Virus record (IMG/VR): IMGVR_UViG_3300025401_000648
DNA length: 64,000 bases
Reading direction: 5' to 3' (one strand)
DNA from: a virus
Lineage: Duplodnaviria > Caudoviricetes
In this document: in pieces, positions 29,701 to 43,680 of the stretch
Position numbering within the stretch: position 1 is the stretch's first letter
Layout of the letters: every line of letters begins with the position of its first letter
The notes under the pieces: generated by a model
What the model saw: the letters and a program-made list of their open reading frames with translations, nothing else
What the model was told of the DNA's origin: nothing
Databases searched by the model: none
Translations under genes and position numbers: made by a program

Positions 29701-29736
29701 CAAAAAAAAGCCCCGTCAACGCCAGCTCAACGGGGC
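29701..29736 (-). terminator. Intrinsic terminator ending the leftward early block
   Basis: GCCCCGT...ACGGGGC followed by T8 on - strand. Confidence 0.8.
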
Positions 29737-29758
29737 CCAAACGCTCTACGCTAGACTC

Positions 29759-30103: not shown

Positions 30104-30134
30104 ACTAGCTCCTTAGTGTGTTGTGTAAGTCTAT

Positions 30135-30163
30135 ATTATAAGGCCCTTTCGGGCCTTTGTCAA
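30135..30163 (-). promoter_or_regulatory. Early promoter cassette
   Basis: TTGACA-17-TATAAT, spacer hairpin GGCCC-GAAA-GGGCC. Confidence 0.85.
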
Positions 30164-30987: not shown

Positions 30988-31014
30988 ACTTGCTCCTAGT
31001 GTGTGTAAGTGTAT

Positions 31015-31043
31015 ATTATACGGCCTTAGGCCGCTTCTGTCAA
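31015..31043 (-). promoter_or_regulatory. Early promoter cassette
   Basis: TTGACA-17-TATAAT, spacer IR CGGCC-TAA-GGCCG. Confidence 0.85.
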
Positions 31044-31742
31044 CCGAATTACGAAGCCTGTGTAGTCTTTTTTGGCACGTCCCTTGGCCTTCAAACCAGC
31101 GATGCTGCCTTGGGGATCTAGGAAGCGGAGGTCATGCTCATCAGCATTGATCACTGGGAGACCCATGTGTTCTTCAGGCAGACGATCAAACACCGCCGCA
31201 ATATTGAGGCCTTGCTCGATGGCTTTGGCCACATCCGCATCGTTGCCGTCGGCTTTGGAAAATGTCAAGTGGTAGTTCTTGTACTGGCCGACCTTACGAC
31301 CCAGGACCTTAGTGTAGTCATAGAACTGTACAGTAGGGAACAGTTCAAAAATGTTCTTGCCCGCTTCAGCTTCGTACTTCTCCCAGCTCAAGTCTGAGGT
31401 ACCATTCAAGCGGAACACGGGAGTCAAGCCCTGCCGTTCTGCGAACTTAATACCCCGACGGATGTCTGCGACCAAGTTGGTCATAAACTCTTCACGATTG
31501 AAGAAGAACTCCACTGTCTTGCGGATACGAGCCTTTTGGATTGTATTGGTATTCTCACCGCGCTTGAACATGCCACCTCTGCCTGCTGTATTAAGGCAAG
31601 CGGATGCGCAACCTGCTGTGGCCTTGGGGCAGGTGTTGCGCCCGCTAAGGGTGGATGGGGCAAGGTGTAGGATGAATGATAGGTAGCCAAGTTTCGTTCC
31701 CTTTTGGATCTTGGGATTCGCTGTACTTAAGAGCTTGAACAT
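31026..31742 (-). CDS. Phage gp88-like protein with three-Cys Fe-S-type motif
   Basis: CPKATAGCASAC (Cx6Cx3C), RLNGTSD, QFYDYTK, YHLTFS, D.RFLD. Confidence 0.65.
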   Translation of the reverse strand: MFKLLSTANPKIQKGTKLGYLSFILHLAPSTLSGRNTCPKATAGCASACLNTAGRGGMFKRGENTNTIQKARIRKTVEFFFNREEFMTNLVADIRRGIKFAERQGLTPVFRLNGTSDLSWEKYEAEAGKNIFELFPTVQFYDYTKVLGRKVGQYKNYHLTFSKADGNDADVAKAIEQGLNIAAVFDRLPEEHMGLPVINADEHDLRFLDPQGSIAGLKAKGRAKKDYTGFVIRLTEAA

Positions 31743-31773
31743 AGTGTGTGTCCTTTAGTGTGTGTAAGTCTAT

Positions 31774-31802
31774 ATTATAAGGCCTTAGCCTAGGCTTGTC
31801 AA
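31774..31802 (-). promoter_or_regulatory. Early promoter cassette
   Basis: TTGACA-17-TATAAT, spacer palindromes AGCCTAGGCT and AGGCCT. Confidence 0.85.
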
Positions 31803-32006
31803 CCATTCCTTAACATCAGGATCAACTTCCATCATGCGATCAAACTGGGCCGCAACCAGCATGTCACGCATGGCATAGTATTCGGCGCCACCCGCACGGC
31901 AGAGATCTTCCACGGCATGCATGGAAGGCATGCGCCATAGCATCTCGCAGATGAACTTTTGGTTGGGTGTGAGACCAGTGATAGTCAATTCGTCGTCGTC
32001 TCGCAT
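31785..32006 (-). CDS. Early hypothetical protein
   Basis: 73 aa, coupled to upstream micro-ORF. Confidence 0.7.
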   Translation of the reverse strand: MRDDDELTITGLTPNQKFICEMLWRMPSMHAVEDLCRAGGAEYYAMRDMLVAAQFDRMMEVDPDVKEWLTSLG

Positions 32007-32095
32007 TAGAATTCTCCCATGACAATCATGGCCACGAACATGGCCAACAAGGGTGCTCCTAGGACTACGAACAAGTTGAACAAGGCTGTGAACAT
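32006..32095 (-). CDS. 29-aa single-TM microprotein (not in ORF track)
   Basis: MFTALFNLFVVLGAPLLAMFVAMIVMGEF; own promoter and AGGAG RBS. Confidence 0.65.
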   Translation of the reverse strand: MFTALFNLFVVLGAPLLAMFVAMIVMGEF

Positions 32096-32123
32096 TGGGG
32101 CTCCTTTTCTAGTGTATGCCTGT

Positions 32124-32152
32124 ATTATACAGTCAATCTATTTGGATGTCAA
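32124..32152 (-). promoter_or_regulatory. Early promoter cassette
   Basis: TTGACA-17-TATAAT. Confidence 0.85.
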
Positions 32153-32330
32153 CCAAACGGCCTTCTCTAAAGATAAAGTATTCGTTGATAGGGCGGTTGC
32201 TGGATCCACGCCACGACCAAATGCAGTCGTTGCCGGGCATGAGTTCATATTCCTCGATGCCCCGGGCTTTATAGTGCTCGGTGACCAAGAGCACCTCCAA
32301 AGGGTTAAGACGTCCGTCGATCATTACCAT
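32133..32330 (-). CDS. Early hypothetical protein
   Basis: 65 aa in operon. Confidence 0.7.
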   Translation of the reverse strand: MVMIDGRLNPLEVLLVTEHYKARGIEEYELMPGNDCIWSWRGSSNRPINEYFIFREGRLVDIQID

Positions 32331-32536
32331 TCTTTGTGATCTCCCAATGCTTCGTTGTCTCTGTAGCCTGCTGAGTAGGCTGTGATTTCCTCAGCGGTCA
32401 TGTCTTTGAGCTCTACTAGATCTGAGGTGCTGGTAGCGCCCCGATAGTAGTGAGGATTGTAGGGTCTACGGTAGTAGCTATCGGCACTGCCCCTATCGTA
32501 GGGACCTCCGTGTCGTTGATCATATGATGTTGCCAT
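32324..32536 (-). CDS. Early hypothetical protein
   Basis: HGGPYDRG.ADSYY motif; own promoter/RBS. Confidence 0.75.
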   Translation of the reverse strand: MATSYDQRHGGPYDRGSADSYYRRPYNPHYYRGATSTSDLVELKDMTAEEITAYSAGYRDNEALGDHKEW

Positions 32537-32563
32537 TAGTGCTCCTAGTGTGTGTAAGCCTTA

Positions 32564-32592
32564 ATTATACGGTAAAACCAAAGACCCGTCAA
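32564..32592 (-). promoter_or_regulatory. Early promoter cassette
   Basis: TTGACG-17-TATAAT. Confidence 0.8.
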
Positions 32593-32601
32593 CCTCTAGG
32601 G

Positions 32602-32712
32602 TTATTGATCTTGTCCTAGTAGGAAATCAAGTAAGTCTATGTCCAAGCGCCAATGGCTGTCATAGACCTGTGATTCTGCCCACATGAGGAATTCGTCGCT
32701 GTACTGGTTCAT
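32602..32712 (-). CDS. 36-aa acidic microprotein (not in ORF track)
   Basis: MNQYSDEFLMWAESQVYDSHWRLDIDLLDFLLGQDQ; start overlaps upstream stop. Confidence 0.5.
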   Translation of the reverse strand: MNQYSDEFLMWAESQVYDSHWRLDIDLLDFLLGQDQ

Positions 32713-33023
32713 CACATGCTCCAGTAGAGTTCTGAGCTGGGATCGCAAGCTCTGGGACACTCAGTTTCGATGACTACATCAGCGCCTGTCATCAAGCTCT
32801 TCACAGTCTTGTAAGTAGGAAAGTATTCAAACGAGAATCCGTCCTTGGGCTTATACAAGCTCTTGAGCTCACGGACTTCTCGCTCCATACCTGCTTCGTC
32901 CCGCCCCGTGAACTGATAAGTGCCAACGCATCGTTGTCCTACCTTGTTGCGGCTACCGTACTTGGACACCCTAGTCAAGCGCCGATCTGCCTTGTAGATC
33001 CGCAGTGTGTACTCTTGTTTCAT
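32712..33023 (-). CDS. Early hypothetical protein
   Basis: Own promoter/RBS. Confidence 0.75.
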   Translation of the reverse strand: MKQEYTLRIYKADRRLTRVSKYGSRNKVGQRCVGTYQFTGRDEAGMEREVRELKSLYKPKDGFSFEYFPTYKTVKSLMTGADVVIETECPRACDPSSELYWSM

Positions 33024-33049
33024 ATCAGCTCCTTAGTGTCTATGTGTGT

Positions 33050-33078
33050 ATTATAGCACCATTTGATTAGTCTGTCAA
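33050..33078 (-). promoter_or_regulatory. Early promoter cassette
   Basis: TTGACA-17-TATAAT. Confidence 0.85.
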
Positions 33079-33474
33079 CTGTCGATCCTTGAAAGTTTCA
33101 TCATTGGCTAGAGGCTGTAGGAGATGGATCAAGCCACCTTCCATGGCACTGAGTTCAGTCTCGCGCTCTAGTCTGATGTAGTTCAAGGTCCATAGGCTGG
33201 GAGTGACATTGAAGTGTTCATTCAACCACTGCCAGCCCTTGGGATAGATTTGATGCTTCTTAGGCGCCCCGTGTGCCTTGGGCCAATGACTGTCCTGTCG
33301 GCTACGGATGAATCCCTTGCCCACATAGATTACTCGTTGTTCTTCATCGGTTAGGATGTAGACTCCACGTAGGGTTCTTGGCAGGCTGGCCCAGTCCTGG
33401 AATGGCCGGTGTTCAACACGGCAGTCGATGTTAAAGAACTCTTGAACCCTTGTGACTGTGTCTAATACTGTCAT
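33067..33474 (-). CDS. GIY-YIG family nuclease-like protein
   Basis: GVYIL.....VIYVGKG..RSR..SH and E..LI...QP..N. Confidence 0.7.
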   Translation of the reverse strand: MTVLDTVTRVQEFFNIDCRVEHRPFQDWASLPRTLRGVYILTDEEQRVIYVGKGFIRSRQDSHWPKAHGAPKKHQIYPKGWQWLNEHFNVTPSLWTLNYIRLERETELSAMEGGLIHLLQPLANDETFKDRQLTD

Positions 33475-33674
33475 GCCAACTCCTTAAAGGTTCTGTGTCT
33501 AAGATCTATGGTGTAGGGCTTCTTCCACAGCTCTACCTGTGTGCTGTCCTGTTTCACATAGCCAATAGCCCGTGCTGTACGTCCCCGAGGCGGCTCTGTG
33601 AACACATAGACATGATTGGCTGTGGGATGCTCACCCCAGTCTGTGGTCTCTTGAAAAATATAGTGTCGAATCAT
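33471..33674 (-). CDS. Early hypothetical protein
   Basis: ATGA overlaps on both sides. Confidence 0.7.
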   Translation of the reverse strand: MIRHYIFQETTDWGEHPTANHVYVFTEPPRGRTARAIGYVKQDSTQVELWKKPYTIDLRHRTFKELA

Positions 33675-33745
33675 AATTTAGTGAGTATCCATACTTTGAT
33701 TGCAAATATAGCTGCCACTGCCAGTGTGATGTAAAGTGTCTGCAT
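33671..33745 (-). CDS. 24-aa single-TM microprotein (not in ORF track)
   Basis: MQTLYITLAVAAIFAIKVWILTKL; own promoter and AAGGAG RBS. Confidence 0.65.
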   Translation of the reverse strand: MQTLYITLAVAAIFAIKVWILTKL

Positions 33746-33773
33746 CTTGGGCTCCTTTTTAGTGTATGTGTTA

Positions 33774-33802
33774 ATTATACTGCCATTTTAGTGAGTTGTC
33801 AA
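33774..33802 (-). promoter_or_regulatory. Early promoter cassette
   Basis: TTGACA-17-TATAAT. Confidence 0.85.
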
Positions 33803-33810
33803 CCAAAGGT

Positions 33811-33920
33811 GAACCCCGCGGCGTTTCACAACGGGCGGGGTTCTATGCCCTTGGGACACTACCCCCTCGGGACTTTTGCTCGGGACACTACCCCCGAGGC
33901 TGACCAGCATCGCACTGGTC
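33811..33920 (-). ncRNA. Candidate multi-hairpin RNA element with two identical loops
   Basis: 14-nt repeat GGGACACTACCCCC at 33853 and 33882; hairpins at 33902-33920 and 33811-33843. Confidence 0.5.
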
Positions 33921-33928
33921 GGAGCAAT

Positions 33929-34141
33929 CTATGCTGTCTTAAATTCTTTGCCAACGTAAAAATCAATCAATCTACGTTGGATCATTGTTACCAAATCACC
34001 TGCGTCATCGGTCACGATGAATCGTACGGGGCAATTACCCCAGGTGTGCCTGTTCTGAAACTCAGCAAACCAACGCCTATGATCCCTGTTAGTGGGGTCG
34101 AAGGCCACATAGGGCCTTCCCAAATATGCCAGTTTGCTCAT
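33929..34141 (-). CDS. Early hypothetical protein
   Basis: Start reassigned to ATG 34141 just after upstream stop. Confidence 0.7.
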   Translation of the reverse strand: MSKLAYLGRPYVAFDPTNRDHRRWFAEFQNRHTWGNCPVRFIVTDDAGDLVTMIQRRLIDFYVGKEFKTA

Positions 34142-34142
34142 A

Positions 34143-34526
34143 TTAGAAGGATGCTTCTTCCATGTCAGCCAACTGCTTCTCAACTTGAGCCTTGGTAACC
34201 TTGGCTGCCTTAATCTTGATACCTTCCAGTGTGGGCTTGGTCTTCACGGCCTTGGCCACTTTCACTGTCTTAGGTGCTTCACTGCGCTTGTCCAACTCGG
34301 CTTCCAATGCTGCCTTGGCCGCAGGGTTCTTGTCGGCAAAGCCAATCTCCAACAATTTTTGAACTGCCTGCTCCTTGGTCAAAGGCTCAGTGAAGGCTTC
34401 AATCTGGACATCAGTGTGTCCGCCCTTCTCAAGAACCTTAACGCGAAGAGCGTCATTGGCAAATCGTGCTTTGTATTCGCCATTCAGTTTAGAATAGCCA
34501 GCGTGTGTAAAAGTCTTAGTAGTCAT
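34143..34526 (-). CDS. Lys/Ala-rich protein, possibly DNA-binding
   Basis: KTVKVAKAVKTK / KAAKVTKA C-terminus. Confidence 0.75.
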   Translation of the reverse strand: MTTKTFTHAGYSKLNGEYKARFANDALRVKVLEKGGHTDVQIEAFTEPLTKEQAVQKLLEIGFADKNPAAKAALEAELDKRSEAPKTVKVAKAVKTKPTLEGIKIKAAKVTKAQVEKQLADMEEASF

Positions 34527-34580
34527 TTCAATTTCCTATGTGTGTGTTGATCAATCAGTGGCCCATCCACTGTACTTACT

Positions 34581-34609
34581 ATTATACTGCCTTTTGAATT
34601 GGCTGTCAA
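34581..34609 (-). promoter_or_regulatory. Early promoter cassette
   Basis: TTGACA-17-TATAAT; leader hairpin CAGTGG-ATGGG-CCACTG. Confidence 0.85.
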
Positions 34610-34616
34610 CCATTTT

Positions 34617-34808
34617 TTATGAATTAACCGTTTCAAAAGGACTGTATTGTTCCTGGGGGAAAGCATCTTCCCATTCCACATTGACCTGTTCAATCCAATC
34701 GTAGACCATGTCAATGGGGCACTCCAACATCATGGCAATGGTCTTGGGACTATAACCTTCAATGTATAGTTGCTCAATGTCGTAGCTCAAATCCTTAATT
34801 TCAGTCAT
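34617..34808 (-). CDS. Small HTH-like protein
   Basis: GYSPKTIAMMLECPIDMVYDWI. Confidence 0.6.
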   Translation of the reverse strand: MTEIKDLSYDIEQLYIEGYSPKTIAMMLECPIDMVYDWIEQVNVEWEDAFPQEQYSPFETVNS

Positions 34809-35016
34809 CGTAGGCCTCCTCGCCCATCTCTGTTACTCGTTCTTCAACCACAACCAAATCAACAATCCTAGCTGTTTGGTCCACGTCGCTGATACCTTGG
34901 AATGCTGTGCGGAAACTTTGGTACTCGGCCAGGAAGTCAAACACAGCCAATTTGTCCCATTCATCAGGAACCTCAAGCTCCTGTGTCAAAACGGTTTGAA
35001 CTCGTACTGTTTTCAT
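34801..35016 (-). CDS. Early hypothetical protein
   Basis: 71 aa, coupled overlaps. Confidence 0.7.
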   Translation of the reverse strand: MKTVRVQTVLTQELEVPDEWDKLAVFDFLAEYQSFRTAFQGISDVDQTARIVDLVVVEERVTEMGEEAYDD

Positions 35017-35489
35017 GCTACCTCCTCTTCAGCGGCCAAAGCCTCTGCCAACGGCACCAACTGCTTATACAACGCTTCATTGCGTTCATGTGTAGTGCCG
35101 CAGTACCAAACACCATCTCGCATGATGTAGTAGTATTCGCCACAGCAGTTATCAACCTGCTCAAAGAACTCTTCAAATGTGTGTGCTACCTTCCAGCTGA
35201 CATTCTCTTCGCCGCGATCGCGTCCGTAAAAGGTACACATATCCTCGGTCAGTTGCTTGAACGCTTCTACTTCCTCTGCGGGCAAGACAAACTGGCTAAA
35301 GGCGTGCTTCTCGCCAATGTTAGGACGCAGGCTACTCAAGTCGCCCAGTGCTACGAGGTTATTGGCTTTGGCAGAGTCGTAGTGCTCTTGTAGGATAGCG
35401 CCATTGTGTGCCAAGTAGCCGTCCCAGTGGCAGTAGACTGACTTAACAATGTCACCGTGCATAATCCCAATACGTGAACGTGTTCCCAT
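35013..35489 (-). CDS. Early hypothetical protein
   Basis: MGTRSRIG...VYCHWDGY; own promoter/RBS. Confidence 0.75.
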   Translation of the reverse strand: MGTRSRIGIMHGDIVKSVYCHWDGYLAHNGAILQEHYDSAKANNLVALGDLSSLRPNIGEKHAFSQFVLPAEEVEAFKQLTEDMCTFYGRDRGEENVSWKVAHTFEEFFEQVDNCCGEYYYIMRDGVWYCGTTHERNEALYKQLVPLAEALAAEEEVA

Positions 35490-35517
35490 GTAGTGCTCCT
35501 AGTGTGTGTAAGTGTTA

Positions 35518-35547
35518 ATTATACAGTAACTCGATGCCAGCTGTCAA
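35518..35547 (-). promoter_or_regulatory. Early promoter cassette
   Basis: TTGACA-18-TATAAT inside the 3' end of the upstream ORF. Confidence 0.8.
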
Positions 35548-35737
35548 CCGAACTAACGGCATCCCAAACAGCTTCGCGCACCGCTGTGTCTGTAGCCTCG
35601 CTGTAGACTTCTTCCTTGCTCACAGCAATCAACAGGTTCATCACAGTGGCCCAGTTCAGAAAACGCTTGTTGGCCATCTCAACAATGTCGTTGATCACAG
35701 CATTGCCAGCATCTGTGAACATTCCATAGTCTTTCAT
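35519..35737 (-). CDS. Early hypothetical protein
   Basis: Own promoter/RBS. Confidence 0.75.
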   Translation of the reverse strand: MKDYGMFTDAGNAVINDIVEMANKRFLNWATVMNLLIAVSKEEVYSEATDTAVREAVWDAVSSVDSWHRVTV

Positions 35738-35764
35738 ATCAGCTCCTAGTGTGTGTAAGTCTTA

Positions 35765-35793
35765 ATTATAACACAGGCCTGAGCCTGTGTCAA
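35765..35793 (-). promoter_or_regulatory. Early promoter cassette
   Basis: TTGACA-17-TATAAT, 8-bp IR ACACAGGC-TCAG-GCCTGTGT. Confidence 0.85.
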
Positions 35794-35798
35794 CTCGT

Positions 35799-36089
35799 TT
35801 ATGCGTGTTCTTTGTCTTCGACTAAGGTCAACATGTTAGCGGGCACACGCCAAAGTCCCTGCACGGTCTTGACTGTGACATACTTGATGGCGATCTTTGT
35901 AACAAAGCCAGTGATGTTCTGTCCAGTCTTGTTAGATGTGAAGCTGACGTTGTCGCCAACCATCAAACTACGGATTGTGGTCTTCTGCAGACGCGATTTG
36001 GCATACTTGACAGCATCGATGATGCTGGACAATTCACTGTTGGTAAACGAACCAAACATGATTGCACTGTTGATTTTTTCGATATCCAT
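35799..36089 (-). CDS. Early hypothetical protein with SH3/KOW-like C-terminus
   Basis: VGDNVSF....G.V......V.V....W.V pattern. Confidence 0.7.
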   Translation of the reverse strand: MDIEKINSAIMFGSFTNSELSSIIDAVKYAKSRLQKTTIRSLMVGDNVSFTSNKTGQNITGFVTKIAIKYVTVKTVQGLWRVPANMLTLVEDKEHA

Positions 36090-36116
36090 GATAGCTCCTA
36101 GTGTGTGTAAGTCTTA

Positions 36117-36145
36117 ATTATACTGCCCTTTGGCTGTCTTGTCAA
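36117..36145 (-). promoter_or_regulatory. Early promoter cassette
   Basis: TTGACA-17-TATAAT. Confidence 0.85.
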
Positions 36146-36369
36146 CCAAAGTACTTGATTAAACCTGCGGCACAGATAGCTATACCCACAACGTTGGTCA
36201 CAATCTGTGGCTTATTACGTACCCGAAAGCTCCAAACCAAGTACAGCAGACCCCCTAAGGAGCCTGCCACGATATTCCAAGGATACATGTCCAAGGACAT
36301 CAAAGTATACATGGCCATGAAGCAGGCAGTGCCTGCCCACTGGATGATGTCATTAGTCTTCAAGTTCAT
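36142..36369 (-). CDS. Small membrane protein
   Basis: Hydrophobic helices; start reassigned near upstream stop. Confidence 0.65.
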   Translation of the reverse strand: MNLKTNDIIQWAGTACFMAMYTLMSLDMYPWNIVAGSLGGLLYLVWSFRVRNKPQIVTNVVGIAICAAGLIKYFG

Positions 36370-36940
36370 CCTCATTCTCTGCTTCGTATTCAGCCATGCC
36401 GTCTGAGATACCAAACATGTCATCCAAATCCGCAGGGATCGCATCCTTGACAGTCACACTCGTGTAACCACCAATGTCATAAGTTTCATCACCGTTCTCA
36501 TCGTGGATTCCACAGAAAGCCATGCCAGGCTCATAGTAGTAGGCACGCACTGTGAAGCCCTGCTCCATCAGTGCCTCATAGACTCCAGTAGGAGGGCTCC
36601 ATGCTGAATCAAAGCCAAAGGTAATGCCCTTGTCATGTTGGGCATCATACTCAACAGTATCGTAGGGATTCACATCCCACTTGGTGCCCCATTCGTTGAC
36701 ACAGAAGTCATACCATGTAGCGTAGCCATGCTTCTCACGATTGGCATTCTCTTGCTCTACGAGCTTGATCTGCTCAGGGCTATCATCAGCACCCACGCGG
36801 CCAGCCACAATGTGTAGGCTTTCTGGAACGGGACGGGCAAAGTTACAGAACTTGCCTTCGTTAATTGCTTCAACCAAAGCATACATCTTGGTCTTGTCTT
36901 CGTGGTTGATCTCAACTGTGTTGTTGCACCAATTTGGCAT
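36353..36940 (-). CDS. DUF1281/YubB-like protein
   Basis: MPNWCNN, WGTKWD, FDSAWSPP, YYEPGM.FCG. Confidence 0.7.
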   Translation of the reverse strand: MPNWCNNTVEINHEDKTKMYALVEAINEGKFCNFARPVPESLHIVAGRVGADDSPEQIKLVEQENANREKHGYATWYDFCVNEWGTKWDVNPYDTVEYDAQHDKGITFGFDSAWSPPTGVYEALMEQGFTVRAYYYEPGMAFCGIHDENGDETYDIGGYTSVTVKDAIPADLDDMFGISDGMAEYEAENEDELED

Positions 36941-36974
36941 ATTCGCTCCTTAAAGTGTGTTAGTGTAAGTGTAT

Positions 36975-37003
36975 ATTATACAACCAAAATCATGCTTTGT
37001 CAA
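36975..37003 (-). promoter_or_regulatory. Early promoter cassette
   Basis: TTGACA-17-TATAAT. Confidence 0.85.
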
Positions 37004-37202
37004 GCATTCGCATCAATTCATTGTTCAAAAAGTCCATCTCAGTCCGCTCCACATAGAAGTCTGTGGTGGGATCGTAGTAGGCACCTTCCTGGGGATCGTA
37101 ATACAAGACACGACCTGAGAAGTTGAACGGACCTTCAAGCCCCTTACGGGGGCCATACTTGTCACGCATCCTATCCCCAGTGTCCAAAACGCGATATCCC
37201 AT
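36990..37202 (-). CDS. Early hypothetical protein
   Basis: Start ATG 37202 after AGGAG; GPRKGLEGPF..LYYDP. Confidence 0.75.
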   Translation of the reverse strand: MGYRVLDTGDRMRDKYGPRKGLEGPFNFSGRVLYYDPQEGAYYDPTTDFYVERTEMDFLNNELMRMLDKA

Positions 37203-37229
37203 TGTCAGCTCCTTTGTTGCTAAGTCTTT

Positions 37230-37258
37230 ATTATACGATCGGTTAAACCATTTGTCAA
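37230..37258 (-). promoter_or_regulatory. Early promoter cassette
   Basis: TTGACA-17-TATAAT; spacer GGTT-T-AACC. Confidence 0.85.
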
Positions 37259-37269
37259 CCAAAAAAACA

Positions 37270-37344
37270 TGGCGCCGTGGATGGGACTCGAACCCACCTG
37301 ATACTGATAGACAATCAGTTGCCCTCCCCGAGGACTACCACGGC
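37270..37344 (-). tRNA. trnD: tRNA-Asp(GTC)
   Basis: GCCGTGG acceptor stem, ACTGA-TTGTCTA-TCAGT anticodon arm, TTCGAGT T-loop, encoded CCA. Confidence 0.92.
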
Positions 37345-37420
37345 TTGAATTAGATTGGGCGGGCTGAGCGAGCACCTCGTTTAATGTTCAGCCCTCAGGC
37401 CAACACCCTGTAACTAGCTA

Positions 37421-37611
37421 GTTAGAAAAGAACTAAAGGAACTCCGGACTACTTGCTCTATACCGTCTATAGTGCTAGTGCCTTCGTCATTACTGCCTGC
37501 CTTATCCGCCGTTGCTCGAGGCCTTCATGCCCTGGATACCAGGTACCCGTCGGTACGCTTCCATCTCTCCAGGCGCCTAGCGGTGTAGGTAACCTTTAAT
37601 GCTTTCCTAAC
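37421..37611 (-). ncRNA. Candidate 191-nt structured ncRNA co-transcribed with tRNA-Asp
   Basis: End pairing GTTAGGAAAG/CTTTTCTAAC and ATTAAAGG/CCTTTAGT, inner CTAC/GTAG, GCTAG/CTAGC, several hairpins; own promoter. Confidence 0.65.
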
Positions 37612-37624
37612 TGTCTATGTCTTT

Positions 37625-37653
37625 ATTATAGCACCGGTTTAACCATTTGTCAA
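37625..37653 (-). promoter_or_regulatory. Early promoter for ncRNA-tRNA-Asp transcript
   Basis: TTGACA-17-TATAAT; spacer GGTT-A-AACC. Confidence 0.85.
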
Positions 37654-37681
37654 TCCCGGGCTATAATACCCTTTCTTTCTA

Positions 37682-37753
37682 CTAGGACTTTGGTGCTGTA
37701 GGACAGCTCTTAAGTCCGTTCCAGTGCCACTTGCGACAATGTGTACATTCCAT
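37682..37753 (-). CDS. 23-aa Cys/His microprotein (not in ORF track)
   Basis: MECTHCRKWHWNGLKSCPTAPKS; own promoter and AAGGAG RBS. Confidence 0.6.
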   Translation of the reverse strand: MECTHCRKWHWNGLKSCPTAPKS

Positions 37754-37779
37754 ATGTGCTCCTTAGTGTGTAAGTATGT

Positions 37780-37808
37780 ATTATACTGCCTTTTGGGCGC
37801 CTTGTCAA
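37780..37808 (-). promoter_or_regulatory. Early promoter cassette
   Basis: TTGACA-17-TATAAT. Confidence 0.85.
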
Positions 37809-37811
37809 CTA

Positions 37812-38021
37812 TTACAACCAGCAGTCGTCCGCATCTTCCACAGTCTCAGTCTGTCCCCCAATGTAGCCTCCCTGGAAGCCATTGGGGTTTTCCAAAACCA
37901 ATCGAGTGCGATTGAACCCGCCCTCTGTGATTCGCACAACGCGACCACTCTGTTCAATGTCTGCTTTGAACGACACCCAGTCGCCTACCCGTACTTCTTG
38001 TCCGTCAACGTAGGCTCTCAT
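37812..38021 (-). CDS. Early hypothetical protein (SH3-like)
   Basis: Start reassigned to ATG 38021; VRVGDWVSFK..IEQSGRV. Confidence 0.7.
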   Translation of the reverse strand: MRAYVDGQEVRVGDWVSFKADIEQSGRVVRITEGGFNRTRLVLENPNGFQGGYIGGQTETVEDADDCWL

Positions 38022-38022
38022 A

Positions 38023-38403
38023 TCAGCACTCCGGATCAAAGTCATGCCACTCTTGGGCCTCATCGGGTTGGCCATCGCTTTCGCAAAGCCCGTCAAACTC
38101 CATCAACTGCTCAAGCGCATCACGCACTCGCCCACTCTCCGAAGTGTAGAAAGTATACTCGCCCAATGTCGTGCGACCCTCGCCTTCTCGGATGTATTCA
38201 AAGCCACCGTAGTAGTCCAAGCGTGAGCCTGTGTATGACACAATAGTGTCTTCATCTACAAACAACCTTCCGCAACGGCTATCCAAGCCCAAGTGTTCAG
38301 CTGGCTCTTGTCGCAGGCCCTGCACGTGACGCTCCACTACCTCAGCGATAGCATCCAGCAGGTCTGGTGTTGAATCAAACTGTGTATCTGTAAAGTAACC
38401 CAT
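38023..38403 (-). CDS. Acidic early hypothetical protein
   Basis: Ends DGQPDEAQEWHDFDPEC; own promoter/RBS. Confidence 0.75.
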   Translation of the reverse strand: MGYFTDTQFDSTPDLLDAIAEVVERHVQGLRQEPAEHLGLDSRCGRLFVDEDTIVSYTGSRLDYYGGFEYIREGEGRTTLGEYTFYTSESGRVRDALEQLMEFDGLCESDGQPDEAQEWHDFDPEC

Positions 38404-38434
38404 TTCAGCTCCTAGTGTGTTAGTGTAAGTATGT

Positions 38435-38463
38435 ATTATAAGGCCTTTTTAGGGGCCTGTCAA
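38435..38463 (-). promoter_or_regulatory. Early promoter cassette
   Basis: TTGACA-17-TATAAT; AGGCC...GGCCT IR. Confidence 0.85.
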
Positions 38464-38466
38464 TGC

Positions 38467-38673
38467 CTAGCTACAAAATATTTCTTTGCTAAGGATCTTG
38501 TCCTCTACCAACTGATAGCAGGCATTTAGTGTGTAGGTCATGATCAAGTGTGCGTTGGCCCGCTGACTTCGGGGCAAGCTGTCAATCAAAGCCTGGATCT
38601 CGCCCAATGATGGGGAGGTGAAAAAATTGTTACGGGGAATGGGGTTCTGTACCACGTCGTATGTTCCGCTCAT
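38467..38673 (-). CDS. Early hypothetical protein
   Basis: Own promoter/RBS. Confidence 0.7.
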   Translation of the reverse strand: MSGTYDVVQNPIPRNNFFTSPSLGEIQALIDSLPRSQRANAHLIMTYTLNACYQLVEDKILSKEIFCS

Positions 38674-38702
38674 CGCATGCTCCTTAAAGTGTGTTAGTGT
38701 AT

Positions 38703-38731
38703 ATTATACTATCAATCTGCTAGTGTGTCAA
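38703..38731 (-). promoter_or_regulatory. Early promoter cassette
   Basis: TTGACA-17-TATAAT. Confidence 0.85.
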
Positions 38732-38855
38732 CTATTATTGTCTCAGTAAACTCGTCCTCAACACGCTCTAGTGCTACCTCTAGTGCCTCTGTTTCGTCTG
38801 TAGCTTCAACTTCAATCTCAAATTCTCTTGTAATTTGTACTAAAAATGTTTTCAT
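38712..38855 (-). CDS. 47-aa acidic microprotein (not in ORF track)
   Basis: MKTFLVQITREFEIEVEATDETEALEVALERVEDEFTETIIVDTLAD; AAGGAG RBS. Confidence 0.65.
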   Translation of the reverse strand: MKTFLVQITREFEIEVEATDETEALEVALERVEDEFTETIIVDTLAD

Positions 38856-38874
38856 CTTCGCTCCTTAAAAACTT

Positions 38875-38903
38875 ATTATAACGCATTCTGTCCAAAATGT
38901 CAA
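38875..38903 (-). promoter_or_regulatory. Early promoter cassette
   Basis: TTGACA-17-TATAAT. Confidence 0.85.
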
Positions 38904-38912
38904 ATGCGCTAT

Positions 38913-38930
38913 AAAAAGCCCTTACGGGCT
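38913..38930 (-). terminator. Intrinsic terminator
   Basis: AGCCC-GTAA-GGGCT followed by T run. Confidence 0.7.
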
Positions 38931-38949
38931 GTAGGGTTATTATATAACA

Positions 38950-39105
38950 TTAATCCACGTAGTAGTCAACCGTTTGCAATAGTGTGCTCATTGCGTTCTC
39001 TAACTCGTTAAAGCACTCCAGTTCCACTAGTTTCTCGCCATCGCATGTTGCTGTTAACAGCATAGCTTCCACTTCCGCTAGTTTAACAAGTATTGCATCT
39101 TTCAT
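38950..39105 (-). CDS. Early hypothetical protein
   Basis: Start reassigned to ATG 39105 after AAGGAG. Confidence 0.7.
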   Translation of the reverse strand: MKDAILVKLAEVEAMLLTATCDGEKLVELECFNELENAMSTLLQTVDYYVD

Positions 39106-39133
39106 TTGTGCTCCTTTTTTAGTGTATGTGTGT

Positions 39134-39162
39134 ATTATACTGCCAATCCGCCAGCGTGTCAA
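39134..39162 (-). promoter_or_regulatory. Early promoter (left arm of divergent pair)
   Basis: TTGACA-17-TATAAT. Confidence 0.85.
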
Positions 39163-39222
39163 CAAGTTTATTGTAAAGTTTTGTAAACCATGACTGTTGT
39201 GAAAATACAACACAAAAAACAG

Positions 39223-39251
39223 TTGACACAGAGCCAGTACTGCGCTATAAT
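39223..39251 (+). promoter_or_regulatory. Early promoter (right arm of divergent pair)
   Basis: TTGACA-17-TATAAT plus ACACACTTACACTAAAAGGAG leader. Confidence 0.85.
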
Positions 39252-39279
39252 ACACACTTACACTAAAAGGAGTACTAAA

Positions 39280-39519
39280 ATGGGTCAATACGCTAACACA
39301 GTAAACGCATACGCTATGTCCGCCGCTCGCGCAAAAGTATACACTATGCAAAACACGCTACAGAGCTACGGTCAGACCGCTTATATGCTAAATGTAAGCA
39401 CAGCCAAGTTCCGTAAGGACATCGAAGCTAAAAAAGTAAAATTTATTGCCCTATTGGAAAAAGAGCGTGTTGCGCAATTACAACAAGAGCTGGCACGTTT
39501 ACAAGCAAAAACTGCTTGA
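39280..39519 (+). CDS. Early hypothetical coiled-coil protein
   Basis: Start reassigned to ATG 39280 after AAGGAG. Confidence 0.7.
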   Translation: MGQYANTVNAYAMSAARAKVYTMQNTLQSYGQTAYMLNVSTAKFRKDIEAKKVKFIALLEKERVAQLQQELARLQAKTA

Positions 39520-39545
39520 CATCTCGCCCCGAAAGGGCGTATAAT
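39516..39545 (+). promoter_or_regulatory. Early promoter cassette
   Basis: TTGACA-18-TATAAT; spacer hairpin CGCCC-CGAAA-GGGCG. Confidence 0.8.
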
Positions 39546-39571
39546 ACACACTTAAACACTAAAGGAGCACT

Positions 39572-39796
39572 ATGTCAAAAGCACTTAACAAACGCATTGC
39601 CGACGCCTTCGCTACAATTTACGACCAGGGCGATAACGGACTAGAGTACATGGACGGCCACACTGCGCTGGACCCGGCTCTAATGGAGCACTTTTACAAT
39701 GACACAGTAGAGACACTGTCTAAAGCAGATCGCACCCGCATGGCCCTAATGTTGGAGACCATTGCCAGCGATATGGACATGGACTTAGAGTGTTAA
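39572..39796 (+). CDS. Early hypothetical protein
   Basis: Own promoter and AAGGAG RBS. Confidence 0.75.
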   Translation: MSKALNKRIADAFATIYDQGDNGLEYMDGHTALDPALMEHFYNDTVETLSKADRTRMALMLETIASDMDMDLEC

Positions 39797-39830
39797 AAGT
39801 GATGGGGACTAGGTCCCCTATACACTAGTA

Positions 39831-40010
39831 CAGCACGTGAGCAAGTATCTCCATGCTGTCCCGCCTCGCTTGTTCCTGCTGTGATCAAGCTCACCACTAG
39901 CCTTAACCTGTTAGAGTTTAGGTCACGAGTTCGGACTGTGTGCGCCGGATCTATGATCACTAGCTCAATGTGATTTAGCTGACCCGACGGACTCTAACCT
40001 CCTGATCAGC
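39831..40010 (-). ncRNA. Candidate structured ncRNA downstream of tRNA-Ile
   Basis: Nested helices 39878-89/40001-10, 39910-17/39991-98, 39921-25/39980-84, hairpin 39831-58; G.U pairs favour - strand. Confidence 0.55.
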
Positions 40011-40053
40011 ATCACACATCTTTATCCACTGGTCCTACGGTTTATCAAACATT

Positions 40054-40131
40054 TGGTGGGCCGTCTTGGAGTCGAACCAAGCACCAATGGATTATGAGTC
40101 CACTGCTCTAACCAACATGAGCTAACGGCCC
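40054..40131 (-). tRNA. trnI: tRNA-Ile2(CAT) (lysidine type; Met less likely)
   Basis: GGGCCGT acceptor stem, GTGGA-CTCATAA-TCCAT anticodon arm, A73-CCA; resembles bacterial Ile2 rather than fMet/Met. Confidence 0.85.
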
Positions 40132-40690
40132 TATATACACTCTATACACTCTATACAGCGGGGTTTTTCTTGCATGCAAGAACTTAGACTACGAGCTCCT
40201 GTTGCTGAATCCACTATATACAGTGTGTATTAGTATCTTAGTCTATGTACTTATTATACACGGACGCCACGGTGTGAGCAATCAGGAAGTTGTTGACACC
40301 GTTGTACACACGCAACACTAGGGTAAAATAATGGTAGAAAAATTGTGAAGAAAACACGAGAAATCCCAGTCTAATCCTGGTGTGAAAATGGTGAGAAATG
40401 GTGGAGAATCATGGTGTTCTAGCGGGGTTTTTGGTGTGAAACAGTGCCTAAACTAGGGATTTTTGGCTAAAATTTTTTTGGATGGGTGGAGTCACCGTCG
40501 GCTATAGTCAAATGGTCCGTTGAAGATTCAGTCAAAATCCGTTGAAGATTCACCAGTTCTTCACCAATTCTTCAGTCTGAATCCCGTCACAATCTTCACC
40601 AAGTTTCTACCCGTTCTTCAACTGCTTACAGCGGGGTTTTCACACTGGATGATGCTGTCCGCGCTGAGTTCGTACAGCGGGGTTTTTACG
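40130..40690. repeat. Non-coding repeat-rich region (origin candidate)
   Basis: AGCGGGGTTTT x4 (40157, 40421, 40630, 40677), TATACACTC tandem, TGGTG..GAA tracts inverted against TTCTTCACCA tracts. Confidence 0.6.
40253..40281 (-). promoter_or_regulatory. Promoter for tRNA-Ile transcript
   Basis: TTGCTC-17-TATAAT. Confidence 0.6.
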
Positions 40691-41279
40691 CCACTACTTC
40701 AAACAGTGTGTTCACGTGTTGAAGTCTGATATCACGTTCCTGCAGGCTATTACTAATAGCCATGCGTTCGAATGTGGGTACTTCGTAGGTCCAAAGATTG
40801 TTGACGTTATCCTGTCGACGTGCGATTCTATTAGGCGTTCCATCTGGGCTGAATGGAATTTCCAAATTACCCCGGTCTGTAGTAATATGCTCATACTCAC
40901 ATCGGGGAATAATAAACCAATAAAACTGGTTGGGTCCTAGATGATTGCCACGTCGATTTAGAATCTGTACTCTGAGATCACCAGTCTTGTTATGTAATCC
41001 CGATATGTTAGCTCCATAGCTCTTGCCCTTGCTGTGTCCACGACAAGTAGCGTATTTGACTTCACTACCATCGCGGATATCCCAACCCTTTTGACTGTCA
41101 TGCCACCATCCACTGAGGTTAGCCACTGCCAACTCCATGAGAGTACTTACTTGTAGTCCGCCCAATTTAGCCAGCAGGGTTACAGTTTTTGGATCCATAG
41201 ACTCACCCCCGGGAATATATCTACGGAACTGTTCAAAGTGTAGGCATTCCTGTTCAGTGGCTGATTTAATTGTGCTCAT
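40686..41279 (-). CDS. Hypothetical protein
   Basis: 197-aa ORF; no confident motif. Confidence 0.65.
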   Translation of the reverse strand: MSTIKSATEQECLHFEQFRRYIPGGESMDPKTVTLLAKLGGLQVSTLMELAVANLSGWWHDSQKGWDIRDGSEVKYATCRGHSKGKSYGANISGLHNKTGDLRVQILNRRGNHLGPNQFYWFIIPRCEYEHITTDRGNLEIPFSPDGTPNRIARRQDNVNNLWTYEVPTFERMAISNSLQERDIRLQHVNTLFEVVA

Positions 41280-41305
41280 GGTTCTCTCTCCGATCTTGTG
41301 AGGGT

Positions 41306-41503
41306 TTATTTTGTAAATCTTGGCATACCTGCCTCAGTGCCTGCATATTGGAAATTATCCAGTAGGGGCACCAGCCGGGCCATGGCCGTGGCATTGTGTC
41401 GTTCTATTACTCGATGCTCGCCATCAATCAACATGTAATACAAATTAGTTGTACCTTCGTCAACCTGCGGCCCAAAAATATATTCCAAATCTTCTAATAT
41501 CAT
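41306..41503 (-). CDS. Hypothetical protein
   Basis: ATGA overlap with upstream gene. Confidence 0.65.
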   Translation of the reverse strand: MILEDLEYIFGPQVDEGTTNLYYMLIDGEHRVIERHNATAMARLVPLLDNFQYAGTEAGMPRFTK

Positions 41504-41745
41504 AGTTCAACTCCAAAATGTTGTTTAATCGCTTGTGTGCCCTTGCGTTTCATACTGCCTTGATATGGCACCATTTCTTTCCAAGTATCTACTTCTGCTT
41601 CAAACGATTGAGCACATTCTCTCACAATCAACTCGGCGAACTTTTCTGAAAATTGTAGCAAGCCTTCATATGTCATGGTGTCCCAGGTGTGACTGAATTC
41701 GCTATCTAGTGTCTTTCCCATAAGGGCTTTAATTCGTTCGTTCAT
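41500..41745 (-). CDS. MNERI...FAELIVREC...HFGVE family paralog 1
   Basis: Shared motifs; start reassigned to ATG 41745. Confidence 0.75.
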   Translation of the reverse strand: MNERIKALMGKTLDSEFSHTWDTMTYEGLLQFSEKFAELIVRECAQSFEAEVDTWKEMVPYQGSMKRKGTQAIKQHFGVEL

Positions 41746-41900
41746 AACCCTATCTGCTTTCCGAATAAACAATACACCTCAAACCATCGTGTGGGTGGAT
41801 TCTCAATGAAGTAAGGATTCACACGGAATGTGATTTCCCAATCTCTTGACCACTGAAAATGTCTAGTGCCAAATCTAATATTAAACCAAAGATTGCTCAT
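41742..41900 (-). CDS. 52-aa Trp/Phe-rich protein (not in ORF track)
   Basis: MSNLWFNIRFGTRHFQW...; ATGA overlaps on both ends. Confidence 0.6.
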   Translation of the reverse strand: MSNLWFNIRFGTRHFQWSRDWEITFRVNPYFIENPPTRWFEVYCLFGKQIGL

Positions 41901-42112
41901 TCTTCAACTCCGAAATGTTCTTTTACAAATTTACCAATGCTTTGCCATTTTTCTCTAGTAGCATCAGCATTGTCGGCAACCTCGGCACATTCCCGAACGA
42001 TCAACTCGGCGAACTTTTCTAATTCGTCATTATCAAATACAGTTAGTCCATCATTGTCATTATCAGGATGTTTAAGAGCCTGTAGGGCAAGTTGTTTGGC
42101 TTGCTCATTCAT
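41897..42112 (-). CDS. MNERI family paralog 2
   Basis: KFAELIVRECA...KEHFGVEE. Confidence 0.75.
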   Translation of the reverse strand: MNEQAKQLALQALKHPDNDNDGLTVFDNDELEKFAELIVRECAEVADNADATREKWQSIGKFVKEHFGVEE

Positions 42113-42315
42113 TATTTGACTCCAAAATTTGGATAGTATTCCACAACCTGTTTGATAATAACTGAACCATTTGATTCAACACAGCGGCACACCCGCCCGG
42201 TAGAAGGAAATTTCCTACTTACCCAGTCTGGTTGAACGGTCTCCTGTTCATCAATTTCAAATGACGCATAATACGCCAGCAAATCTTTTTCTTCCGATTC
42301 TGTTAGTTTAATCAT
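42112..42315 (-). CDS. Unrelated ORF flanked by 20-bp direct repeats
   Basis: Ends FGVK like the family; repeats at 42109-42128 and 42312-42331. Confidence 0.65.
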   Translation of the reverse strand: MIKLTESEEKDLLAYYASFEIDEQETVQPDWVSRKFPSTGRVCRCVESNGSVIIKQVVEYYPNFGVK

Positions 42316-42539
42316 TATTTGACTCCAAAATGTTCTTTAATCGTTCTCACACAACCATTAGCGGCACTACGAACATCATTCAAGCGACTGTCATTGGCAA
42401 TAGCATTAGCACATTCTCTCACAAGCAACTCGGCGAATTTTTCTATATCTTCATTAGATTCAACCCAATAGTAACTGTAATCTTTTTGTGATAGAGATAA
42501 GCCAGCCTGTTCAGCAAGTTCTTTAATTCGTTCGTTCAT
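42315..42539 (-). CDS. MNERI family paralog 3
   Basis: KFAELLVRECA...KEHFGVK. Confidence 0.75.
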   Translation of the reverse strand: MNERIKELAEQAGLSLSQKDYSYYWVESNEDIEKFAELLVRECANAIANDSRLNDVRSAANGCVRTIKEHFGVK

Positions 42540-42711
42540 CTTTTGTTTTCTTAATGAATAGTTGCGTACCAGCAGGAAGATTCTTAAACATCATGGGCAC
42601 AGTTCGTTCGTCAGATTGATCGGTATGGACTGTATGCCCGTCCCATAATTGTCTAACTTGGGGGAACTTTTCTGTTCCTATCACTCCTGCTATTTCAAAT
42701 TCTTCGTTCAT
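42523..42711 (-). CDS. Hypothetical protein inside paralog array
   Basis: 62 aa; 3' end reads through ATGAACGAACGAATT of next gene. Confidence 0.6.
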   Translation of the reverse strand: MNEEFEIAGVIGTEKFPQVRQLWDGHTVHTDQSDERTVPMMFKNLPAGTQLFIKKTKDERTN

Positions 42712-42917
42712 TCTCCAACTCCGAAATGTTTTTTTATATAATCCGCCGCAATAACAGGAGTGTGCCCGTGTTCGTTTTCAATTTCTACATACACATTTGG
42801 AAATAATCCAGCACATTCCCGAACAATCAACTCGGCGAATGTTTCTAGTAGGTCGCCGCCCTCTTCATAGTGAATTATTCCTGCTTCTAGTATTAATTCC
42901 TGAATTCGTTCGTTCAT
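42708..42917 (-). CDS. MNERI family paralog 4
   Basis: TFAELIVRECA...KKHFGVGE. Confidence 0.75.
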   Translation of the reverse strand: MNERIQELILEAGIIHYEEGGDLLETFAELIVRECAGLFPNVYVEIENEHGHTPVIAADYIKKHFGVGE

Positions 42918-43126
42918 TGTTCAACTCCGAAATGTTGTTGGATTCTGCGGGCGAGGATTCCCACCAGCTGGGGAGGTTCTGCTTGGGGTGGATTGGTCTT
43001 TACCCCAGTTACCACCTGTTCCACGCACGCCGCCACAACCAGTTCAGCTAGCCTTTGGGCACGTCCTGCCATTTCAGGTGCCGCATAGCCTGCTTGAAGC
43101 ATCAACTGTCTTAATCTAGGGTTCAT
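42914..43126 (-). CDS. MNERI family paralog 5 (divergent)
   Basis: MNPRLRQL..QAG..LAELVV..C..HFGVEQ. Confidence 0.7.
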   Translation of the reverse strand: MNPRLRQLMLQAGYAAPEMAGRAQRLAELVVAACVEQVVTGVKTNPPQAEPPQLVGILARRIQQHFGVEQ

Positions 43127-43165
43127 CGGGGCCTTTCTTTCTCTATATATGTGTGTAAAAACTAT

Positions 43166-43194
43166 ATTATACAGTGAGCTAGGGCCTTTGTCAA
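43166..43194 (-). promoter_or_regulatory. Early promoter heading paralog array
   Basis: TTGACA-17-TATAAT. Confidence 0.85.
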
Positions 43195-43255
43195 TCTGCT
43201 CAATGTTGTCACAACTCAGTCAACACAATGGGGTATTAGGGCGTTATTAGTGTAT

Positions 43256-43396
43256 ATGAGCCTATTTCTACTACAGATAAGGGAATTACTTTCAAGGGGT
43301 TTGGATCCCTTGGAAATAGCACACAGGCTACACTTGGATCCTGATCTAGTAGTTCGTTGTATAGATTTGATCACATCAGCTAGGGATCTAGTCTAA
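43256..43396 (+). CDS. 46-aa HTH-like protein (not in ORF track)
   Basis: MSLFLLQIRELLSRGLDPLEIAHRLHLDPDLVVRCIDLITSARDLV. Confidence 0.45.
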   Translation: MSLFLLQIRELLSRGLDPLEIAHRLHLDPDLVVRCIDLITSARDLV

Positions 43397-43427
43397 AATC
43401 TGCGCTTCGCGCCGGACTTCTCAGGGC

Positions 43428-43649
43428 TTATACTTGGCCCCACTTCAATAAAAACATGGTATAGAGTCTACGGGTCATTGTGACTTGACTGGTCTTGGCT
43501 TCATACTGCCATTCCTCACGATTTTGGCCCAGTAGCCATGTCAGTATCTGATCACTCTTGGTTGAGATACAGGCGCCCCTATCGTGGTCCATGTTGGTCT
43601 TGGTGAGTTTTTGCCAAATCACTGGGGTCTTGGGCTCATGAGGAATCAT
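43428..43649 (-). CDS. Hypothetical protein
   Basis: TAAATA (43654-43659) 4 nt upstream. Confidence 0.6.
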   Translation of the reverse strand: MIPHEPKTPVIWQKLTKTNMDHDRGACISTKSDQILTWLLGQNREEWQYEAKTSQVTMTRRLYTMFLLKWGQV

Positions 43650-43680
43650 CGCTTATTTAACATAAGGTAAATACATGACT

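Follow-up and report, generated by a model that had tools for sequence, protein, structure and literature searches.

The RNAC and RNAD transcripts of phage T4 (the species 1 and species 2 RNAs) are small, stable phage RNAs that are encoded among the T4 tRNA genes and co-processed with the tRNAs. Two further RNAs of phages or prophages, GOLLD (RF01998) and ROOL (RF03087), are orphan and highly structured and often adjoin tRNA genes. The function of RNAC and RNAD is still unknown, and both are classed as late RNAs (PMC9697503). GOLLD and ROOL have lengths of about 550–800 nt and multi-domain folds. They are reported to form RNA-only cage assemblies (bioRxiv 10.1101/2024.12.08.627333). On a larger scale, Fremin et al. 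2023 (PMC10690425) derived 8,495 structured RNA candidates of DNA viruses from IMG/VR, some of which adjoin tRNAs.

Here we examine a locus from the same data source that encodes the same kind of object, a structured RNA of about 200 nt, for which RNAC and RNAD may be considered the nearest precedents and, more loosely, GOLLD and ROOL. Like the T4 RNAs, it lies upstream of a tRNA gene (tRNA-Asp) on the same strand, and its homologs head tRNA arrays in five loci. In contrast to them it follows an early-type promoter, and sizes and folds differ; blastn of the surrounding 3 kb (36000–39000) against 50,697 deposited phage records returned no match, and hence no sequence similarity to the T4 RNAs. 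With GOLLD and ROOL it shares a genomic context, as 31 of 78 loci among the matches listed have a same-strand tRNA no more than 300 nt downstream, but such a context is not a sign of homology; they are three to four times larger, and neither matches it through Rfam. None of the 8,495 candidates has entered Rfam with a model matching it.

The window, by which we mean the whole stretch of 64,000 nucleotides analysed (IMG/VR record IMGVR_UViG_3300025401_000648), is phage DNA that encodes a terminase, helicases and a tail-fibre-related protein. By terminase its nearest cultured relative is the Pseudomonas jumbo phage PA5oct (53% identity). The nearest IMG/VR record (G001) is a fragment that ends inside the tRNA-Asp homolog, so that the RNA could not appear in it. 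The RNA lies within a 15-kb early-type region (28475–43194, minus strand) holding 24 matches to the sigma-70 consensus (TTGACA-N17-TATAAT; 18 perfect, the other 6 with a single mismatch), where chance predicts 0.8; matches at 49439 and 15269 are also listed. Most of the 24 promoters are followed by a shared leader and a ribosome-binding site, with about one promoter per small gene, and G+C content is 46–51% in the early-gene region (26000–44000) against some 37–41% in the window's structural and replication parts. The features of the locus are collected in Table 1. The original prediction had proposed a strong promoter, a multi-branched RNA whose ends pair, a GGGCUGA/UCAGCCC hairpin, a tRNA-Asp and an internal 20-codon open reading frame (ORF). 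The promoter was confirmed as a complete consensus with a TG extension, and the hairpin, the tRNA and the ORF are likewise present.

Table 1. Features of the RNA locus in the 64,000-nt window; RNA positions count from 37620 as position 1.
Feature	RNA positions	Window coordinates	Strand	Basis or remark
Sigma-70 consensus promoter, TTGACA-17-TATAAT with TG extension		37653-37625	-	12/12 positions match
Predicted transcription start		A37618-A37620	-	inferred from promoter spacing
Structured non-coding RNA, ~201 nt		37420-37620	-	models R1 and R2, covariation
Covariance-model core of the RNA		37432-37602	-	R1 138 bits, R2 77 bits
P1, 5' strand	9-28	37593-37612	-	pairs with 37420-37439
P1, 3' strand	182-201	37420-37439	-	pairs with 37593-37612
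Junction motif GGUUACC	27-33	37588-37594	-	near-invariant
Junction motif GUAAUGA, linker of arms A and B	128-134	37487-37493	-	near-invariant
Junction motif UUCC	180-183		-	near-invariant
P2 and P3, 5' strands, with invariant UAGG	32-36, 38-42; UAGG 42-45	37576-37589	-	covariation
P3 and P2, 3' strands	111-115, 121-125	37496-37510	-	covariation
P4 domain (arm A): outer helix, apical hairpin	45-53 with 85-92; 65-78	37529-37576	-	covariation
Conserved CAUGAA strand and short P5 hairpin	92-97; 98-107	37514-37529	-	conservation
Arm B	133-181	37440-37488	-	covariation
20-codon ORF inside the RNA, GGAG ahead		37564-37502	-	judged no gene
Spacer between RNA and tRNA, 75 nt		37345-37419	-	sequence
GGGCUGA...UCAGCCC hairpin in spacer		37394-37361	-	sequence
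tRNA-Asp (GUC), encoded CCA end		37344-37270	-	ARAGORN and Rfam
Run of seven T, two bases 3' of tRNA-Asp		37261-37267	-	sequence; possible end of RNA operon
Next promoter after the tRNA-Asp unit		37258-37230	-	promoter scan

Several other features of the surroundings deserve description. A terminator scan raised no flag at the run of seven T, where transcription may end. The spacer hairpin (region 37357–37408, minus strand) is retained solely in the three closest relatives (L012, L011 and L058); many homologs are without it, and there the tRNA stands directly 3' of the closing stem. The anticodon loop of the tRNA-Asp (37303–37309, minus strand) reads UUGUCUA and has U at position 37, where a purine is usual. 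Just upstream of the RNA promoter is a micro-ORF of 23 codons, MECTHCRKWHWNGLKSCPTAPKS (37682–37753, minus strand), with its own perfect promoter (37808–37780), an AAGGAG ribosome-binding site and a Cys/His spacing that resembles a small zinc knuckle. An array of short paralogous genes with conserved ends (repeat families D8, D10, D11, D13 and D17) occupies 41500–43126 on the minus strand. A second stretch without a long ORF follows the 3' end of a tRNA-Met (40131–40054) at 39804–40053 on the same strand, and neither covariance model matches it.

Homologs were collected with two neighbouring proteins as handles, which led to 160 related IMG/VR loci; blastn and nhmmer searches of these loci gave about 30 homologous stretches, ranging from 98% to below 70% identity. 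Two exact-pattern scans on invariant motifs added further loci, the yield of the second being a lower bound. The first covariance model (R1), built on an RNAalifold consensus, finds one copy in the window and 48 plus 41, i.e. at least 89, matches in IMG/VR phage contigs, which represent at least 78 distinct loci and at least 75 distinct core sequences. As the R1 consensus had kept only 16 pairs, the better-aligned type-2 subset served to build a second model (R2) of 42 pairs.

The resulting fold consists of a long closing duplex (P1), a near-invariant three-way junction and two arms that end in GNCG-type loops. In the window, P1 runs from A9–U201 to G28–C182 with 19 pairs and one C.U mismatch, so that the ends of the RNA do pair as proposed, and the G.U pairs occur on the minus strand only: read from the opposite strand, G15.U195 and U22.G188 would turn into A.C mismatches. 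P1 spans 19–29 bp in 25 of the 42 homologs scored and 4–10 bp in some members with an intact core, while in the clade that precedes tRNA arrays its sequence is entirely different and the pairing is retained. Across 47 distinct sequences, conservation of the junction motif GGUUACC is at least 85% at C32 and at least 97% at each of the six remaining positions. Beyond it, P2 pairs CCUAC (32–36) with GCAGG (121–125; 37496–37500) and P3 pairs CCGCU (38–42) with GGCGG (111–115; 37506–37510). Standard pairs fill 89–100% of the cells of P2 and P3, and nine of the 11 pairs show compensatory change; in the window itself A35 is opposite C122, a mismatch in P2.

Arm A opens into a second junction that carries the P4 domain (45–92), the CAUGAA strand and P5. 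The outer part of P4 includes a long-range helix, CCUGGA/UCCAGG (48–53 with 85–90), that is backed by covariation. Its apical hairpin (37556–37543) has the loop GACG in the window; of 73 sequences among the matches listed, 44 share this loop and 18 have GCCG. P5 is longer in homologs, where it reads as capped by GNRA or UUCG loops. Arm B is built from a base helix GAC/GUU, a helix of 139–144 with 168–175 and an apical hairpin (149–163; 37472–37458) with loop GACGG, and it occurs in two subtypes in the family. This architecture redraws part of the original prediction. The hairpins GUACC-GACG-GGUAC, at the tip of P4, and CUAUA-GACGG-UAUAG, at the tip of arm B, are present and covary in homologs. 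The proposed inner helices CTAC/GTAG and GCTAG/CTAGC and the hairpin CTGG-TAT-CCAG are not retained in homologs, where covariation backs P2, P3 and the long-range CCUGGA/UCCAGG helix instead.

Evidence that the fold is real comes from comparison. The folding-energy z-score is −0.19 over 276 nt and −1.84 for the 201-nt RNA, and the minimum-energy fold of the window sequence has just 27 of the 57 comparative pairs; single-sequence folding energy is weak evidence, and the case for an RNA therefore rests on covariation. In alignments fitted to the model, a procedure that biases the counts upward, compensatory cells numbered 118 against 35.7 in shuffled alignments and 22 in the best slid control (alignment A4: 47 distinct sequences, 16 pairs, 98.9% of cells paired, 12 pairs compensatory); 48 against 11.7 and 8 in the later-fetched matches, which come from loci unsearched when the seed was chosen, with some rows from contigs also sampled in A4 (A7: 32 distinct sequences, 16 pairs, 99.2% paired, 8 pairs compensatory); and 420 against 97 ± 9 and at most 67 under R2 (A8: 73 distinct sequences among the matches listed, 42 pairs, 95.6% paired, 35 pairs compensatory). 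Alignments made by MAFFT only gave the same picture, with 25 of 42, 19 of 31 and 20 of 42 pairs compensatory. Since G.U pairs are abundant and strand-specific, an example being the invariant U.G in P3, the RNA must be read from the minus strand, the only one that they fit. The expectation of a structured RNA that would show covariation once homologs were collected was thus borne out: at least 75 distinct homologous sequences show strong compensatory change, they conserve no ORF, and Rfam offers no match.

These observations leave little room for the view that there is no RNA gene here at all, and that the locus is what is left of an early protein gene, encodes a micropeptide, or is a DNA-level repeat or recombination site. 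The 20-codon ORF with GGAG ahead does exist, and the region is a mosaic of promoter cassettes, as such a view would have it. Against it, the helix substitutions are compensatory and the G.U pairs strand-specific, and homologs differ in length by amounts that are not multiples of three. Homologs that conserve only the peptide would have told against an RNA; instead, the ORF is already cut to 10 codons in a relative with 88% identity (L011), each of the three sense frames is interrupted by stops in nearly all homologs, and no conserved open frame was found among them. We regard this explanation as scarcely credible.

The sequence was then compared with described RNA families. At the gathering thresholds of Rfam 15, two tRNAs pass in the whole window and nothing else does; at E ≤ 10, the single overlap with the RNA in 37100–37900 is a chance match to Giardia U6 of 13 bits, against a gathering score of 100; and in 13 diverse homologous loci no match overlaps the RNA. 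The RNA was thus rightly called unassigned, and the lack of any Rfam match excludes detectable membership of 6S, GOLLD, ROOL, SRP, tmRNA, RNase P, YrlA and the known riboswitches and ribozymes. The parallels that had been drawn with 6S RNA, GOLLD and ROOL hold as analogies and not as kinship. For 6S RNA (RF00013), the likeness consists of a similar length (~190–200 nt), a long closing duplex and possible abundance; 6S is, however, a rod with a central bubble resembling an open promoter, whereas in the phage RNA the three-way junction is tight and one arm branches, and RF00013 does not match it. The SRP Alu domain also has a closing helix, two hairpin arms and a GUAAU-like joining strand (UGUAAU in SRP, AGUAAUGA in the phage RNA), and the terminal loops of the phage RNA could touch each other. 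Its arms are far longer, however, one of them is branched, and the loops are both of the GNCG type and not complementary. The SRP models of Rfam gave no match in the window or the 13 homologous loci, and the resemblance is topological only. Motif resemblances to the P4 strand of RNase P (AGUCCGG), SRP helix 8 and a box C-like UGA brought no model match and were set aside.

The family was also sought outside its first relatives. An exact-pattern scan of 185,579 prokaryote species-representative genomes gave 32 matches, about the number due to chance, and the model confirmed none of them. Model R2 found nothing in the PA5oct genome, and tblastn of a window protein (44478–46979, with a weak match to a tail-fibre-assembly PHROG) found no match in deposited phages. 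As far as searched, the family is confined to uncultured giant freshwater phages. In five genomes of 92–100% CheckV completeness, there is one copy in each of four genomes of 320–353 kb and two in one of 525 kb. The latter, the largest genome searched (G004, 524,565 bp; the IMG/VR record behind L275), has its divergent copies about 300 kb apart on opposite strands (121547–121753, minus; 422474–422680, plus). The family is absent from Rfam; it is possibly, but not necessarily, one of the 8,495 unnamed IMG/VR candidates (PMC10690425).

Parts of the locus also occur in environmental sequence runs. Fifteen freshwater DNA runs contain at least half of the sampled words of the locus (share 0.75–0.96), and five lake-water metatranscriptome runs contain small parts of it. 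Contigs of four lake-water metatranscriptome runs align to the RNA and to the spacer with the tRNA; they are of low depth and may include DNA, and so they indicate presence rather than ends or abundance. Those on the RNA cover 37432–37589, 37428–37647 and 37420–37634. A further contig of 151 nt, 100% identical, spans exactly the spacer and tRNA (37261–37411). Together the contigs leave 37412–37427 and parts of the flanks bare, gaps to which we attach no weight, and none bridges RNA and spacer. That the three RNA contigs end at 37420–37432 is at most a weak hint that the 3' end of the RNA lies near P1. Contig variants include two compensatory pairs, G40–C113 to A–U and G51–C87 to A–U, the same as in the relative L012.

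The genomic context of the homologs bears on how the RNA is made and where it might act. Of the 78 loci among the matches listed, 36 have a sigma-70-type promoter no more than 90 nt upstream, and where P1 is long, P1 begins 2–10 nt past the predicted transcription start of the homolog. The 31 loci with a tRNA on the same strand within 300 nt downstream, again among the matches listed, have tRNA-Asp (19), Leu (4), Glu (4), Tyr (2), Ser (1) or Ile (1). In 20 of them the tRNA starts 12–28 nt past the model core, i.e. about 0–15 nt past P1, and in one (L207) its 5' end abuts the last P1 pair. At five loci (L176, L182, L186, L202 and L211) the RNA stands at the head of arrays of 7–15 tRNAs. The other 47 of the 78 loci among the matches listed have no tRNA, and there the next unit is usually another promoter or gene; in about half of the loci among the matches listed, what comes next downstream is a fresh promoter. 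In two loci (L096 and L060), a GGAG ribosome-binding site and a start codon come immediately after the 3' strand of P1. At four others (L087, L064, L200 and L190), the −35 box (TTGACA) of the next promoter falls within arm B, on its 3' side, and the spacer of that promoter takes in the 3' strand of P1, so that RNA gene and promoter overlap. No protein family is consistently adjacent to the RNA: families shuffle position, none occurs in the tRNA-array loci, and comparison of the neighbour proteins with Pfam and PHROGs gave weak or unnamed matches only, none of them informative.

Release of the RNA by tRNA processing, as originally proposed, is plausible from this arrangement where a tRNA follows, and the near-abutment of tRNA and P1 in 20 loci speaks for it. 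It does not extend to the family at large; RNase P cannot be the general route of maturation because 47 of 78 loci, among the matches listed, have no downstream tRNA. A stronger form of the idea would make the whole element a processing or stability module, in which duplex and body act as an RNase III or RNase P signal, or stabilise the tRNA transcript at its 5' end, while the piece that is cut out does nothing of its own. Processing stems of this sort are used by rRNA and by T7 early transcripts, and RNase III also cleaves the species 1 RNA of T4 in vitro; a closing duplex of 19–29 bp and the place of the RNA at the head of tRNA arrays would suit such a role. We nevertheless think it unlikely, for a processing stem has no need of a ~150-nt interior that holds an invariant junction and 35 covarying pairs, a P1 of just 4–10 bp goes with a preserved core in some members, and the RNA occurs with no tRNA in 47 of 78 loci among the matches listed, in many of them behind a promoter of its own.

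The same context could instead point to a cis-acting leader or riboswitch, whose fold senses a metabolite, an ion, a tRNA or a protein and controls downstream transcription or translation. A closing P1 helix and invariant junction nucleotides are found in large aptamers, the RNA is 5' of tRNAs in the 31 loci counted above among the matches listed, and the ribosome-binding site and start codon after P1 in L096 and L060 are where a leader would have them. In the window the arm-B loop AGACG is moreover complementary over five pairs to the tRNA-Asp anticodon loop (UGUCU). This pairing idea is weakened by the other tRNA types and by A at position 37 in the tRNA-Asp of L176: tRNAs for Leu, Glu, Tyr, Ser and Ile follow the RNA too, so that the Asp match is not general, and we estimate that a loop triplet would match the neighbouring anticodon by chance in roughly one of 12 cases. 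The loop match is compatible with chance. No Rfam riboswitch model matches, the next unit downstream is a fresh promoter in about half of the loci among the matches listed, and downstream genes share no family. The riboswitch reading fails because there is neither a conserved expression platform (terminator/antiterminator or sequestered ribosome-binding site) nor a common downstream gene, and we hold cis action to be improbable.

Two properties of the junction and loops might be taken to indicate that the RNA cuts or assembles itself, either as a ribozyme that excises itself from the early or tRNA transcript or as a loop-mediated homo-oligomer like ROOL and GOLLD, which are phage-borne and, according to the preprint cited above, form RNA-only assemblies. 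The junction nucleotides are invariant and both apical loops are of the GNCG type; the type-2 arm-B loop, in addition, contains the palindrome ACGU. Yet no known ribozyme model matches and no conserved cleavage-site motif was recognised, the loops are not complementary past CG/CG, and, when tertiary partners of the variable loop nucleotide were sought, the closing pair of that same loop was all that covaried with it. We consider self-cleavage or self-assembly very unlikely. A possible hammerhead in the spacer, suggested by CUGAUGAG in L011, was rejected, having no GAAA, no stem II and no Rfam match.

Our best guess is that the product is a stable RNA that acts in trans, and we put at roughly 60% the probability that the locus encodes a stable, structured non-coding RNA of ~200 nt which belongs to a family of freshwater giant phages and acts in this way. 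Action in trans is preferred over action in cis because the downstream unit varies, there is no conserved protein neighbour, and there is one copy per genome of 320–353 kb. Under this reading, host RNA polymerase would transcribe from the promoter through the RNA and spacer into tRNA-Asp early in infection. A cut by RNase P at the 5' end of the tRNA would free the 3' side of the RNA, and RNase III might also cut within the closing duplex of 19–29 bp. Through its conserved junction and GNCG-type loops, the mature RNA would bind a partner, either protein or RNA, serving as a scaffold or decoy in host takeover or in the remodelling of translation, and not as a regulator of its neighbours.

A bolder version would make the RNA a new class of takeover device, a bulk product of an early promoter or a tRNA operon that, by means of its invariant junction and two GNCG-type loops, captures a host factor or forms an RNA-only particle in the manner of ROOL and GOLLD. 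The factor captured may be a tRNA anticodon loop (e.g. that of tRNA-Asp), a ribonuclease, RNA polymerase or a defence sensor. We offer this as a rather doubtful conjecture.

Giant phages carry large sets of tRNAs and other translation-related genes, while to our knowledge almost nothing is known of their non-coding RNAs. The immediate value of the family is limited because the hosts are uncultured. It does give Rfam-style annotation a model for places where gene callers leave blanks or spurious small ORFs. Being compact, backed by covariation, mostly single-copy and placed behind an early promoter or at the head of a tRNA array, it is a tractable candidate for a new RNA function. Were the takeover conjecture true, giant phages would possess an RNA-based rather than protein-based tool for reprogramming translation or blunting host defence.
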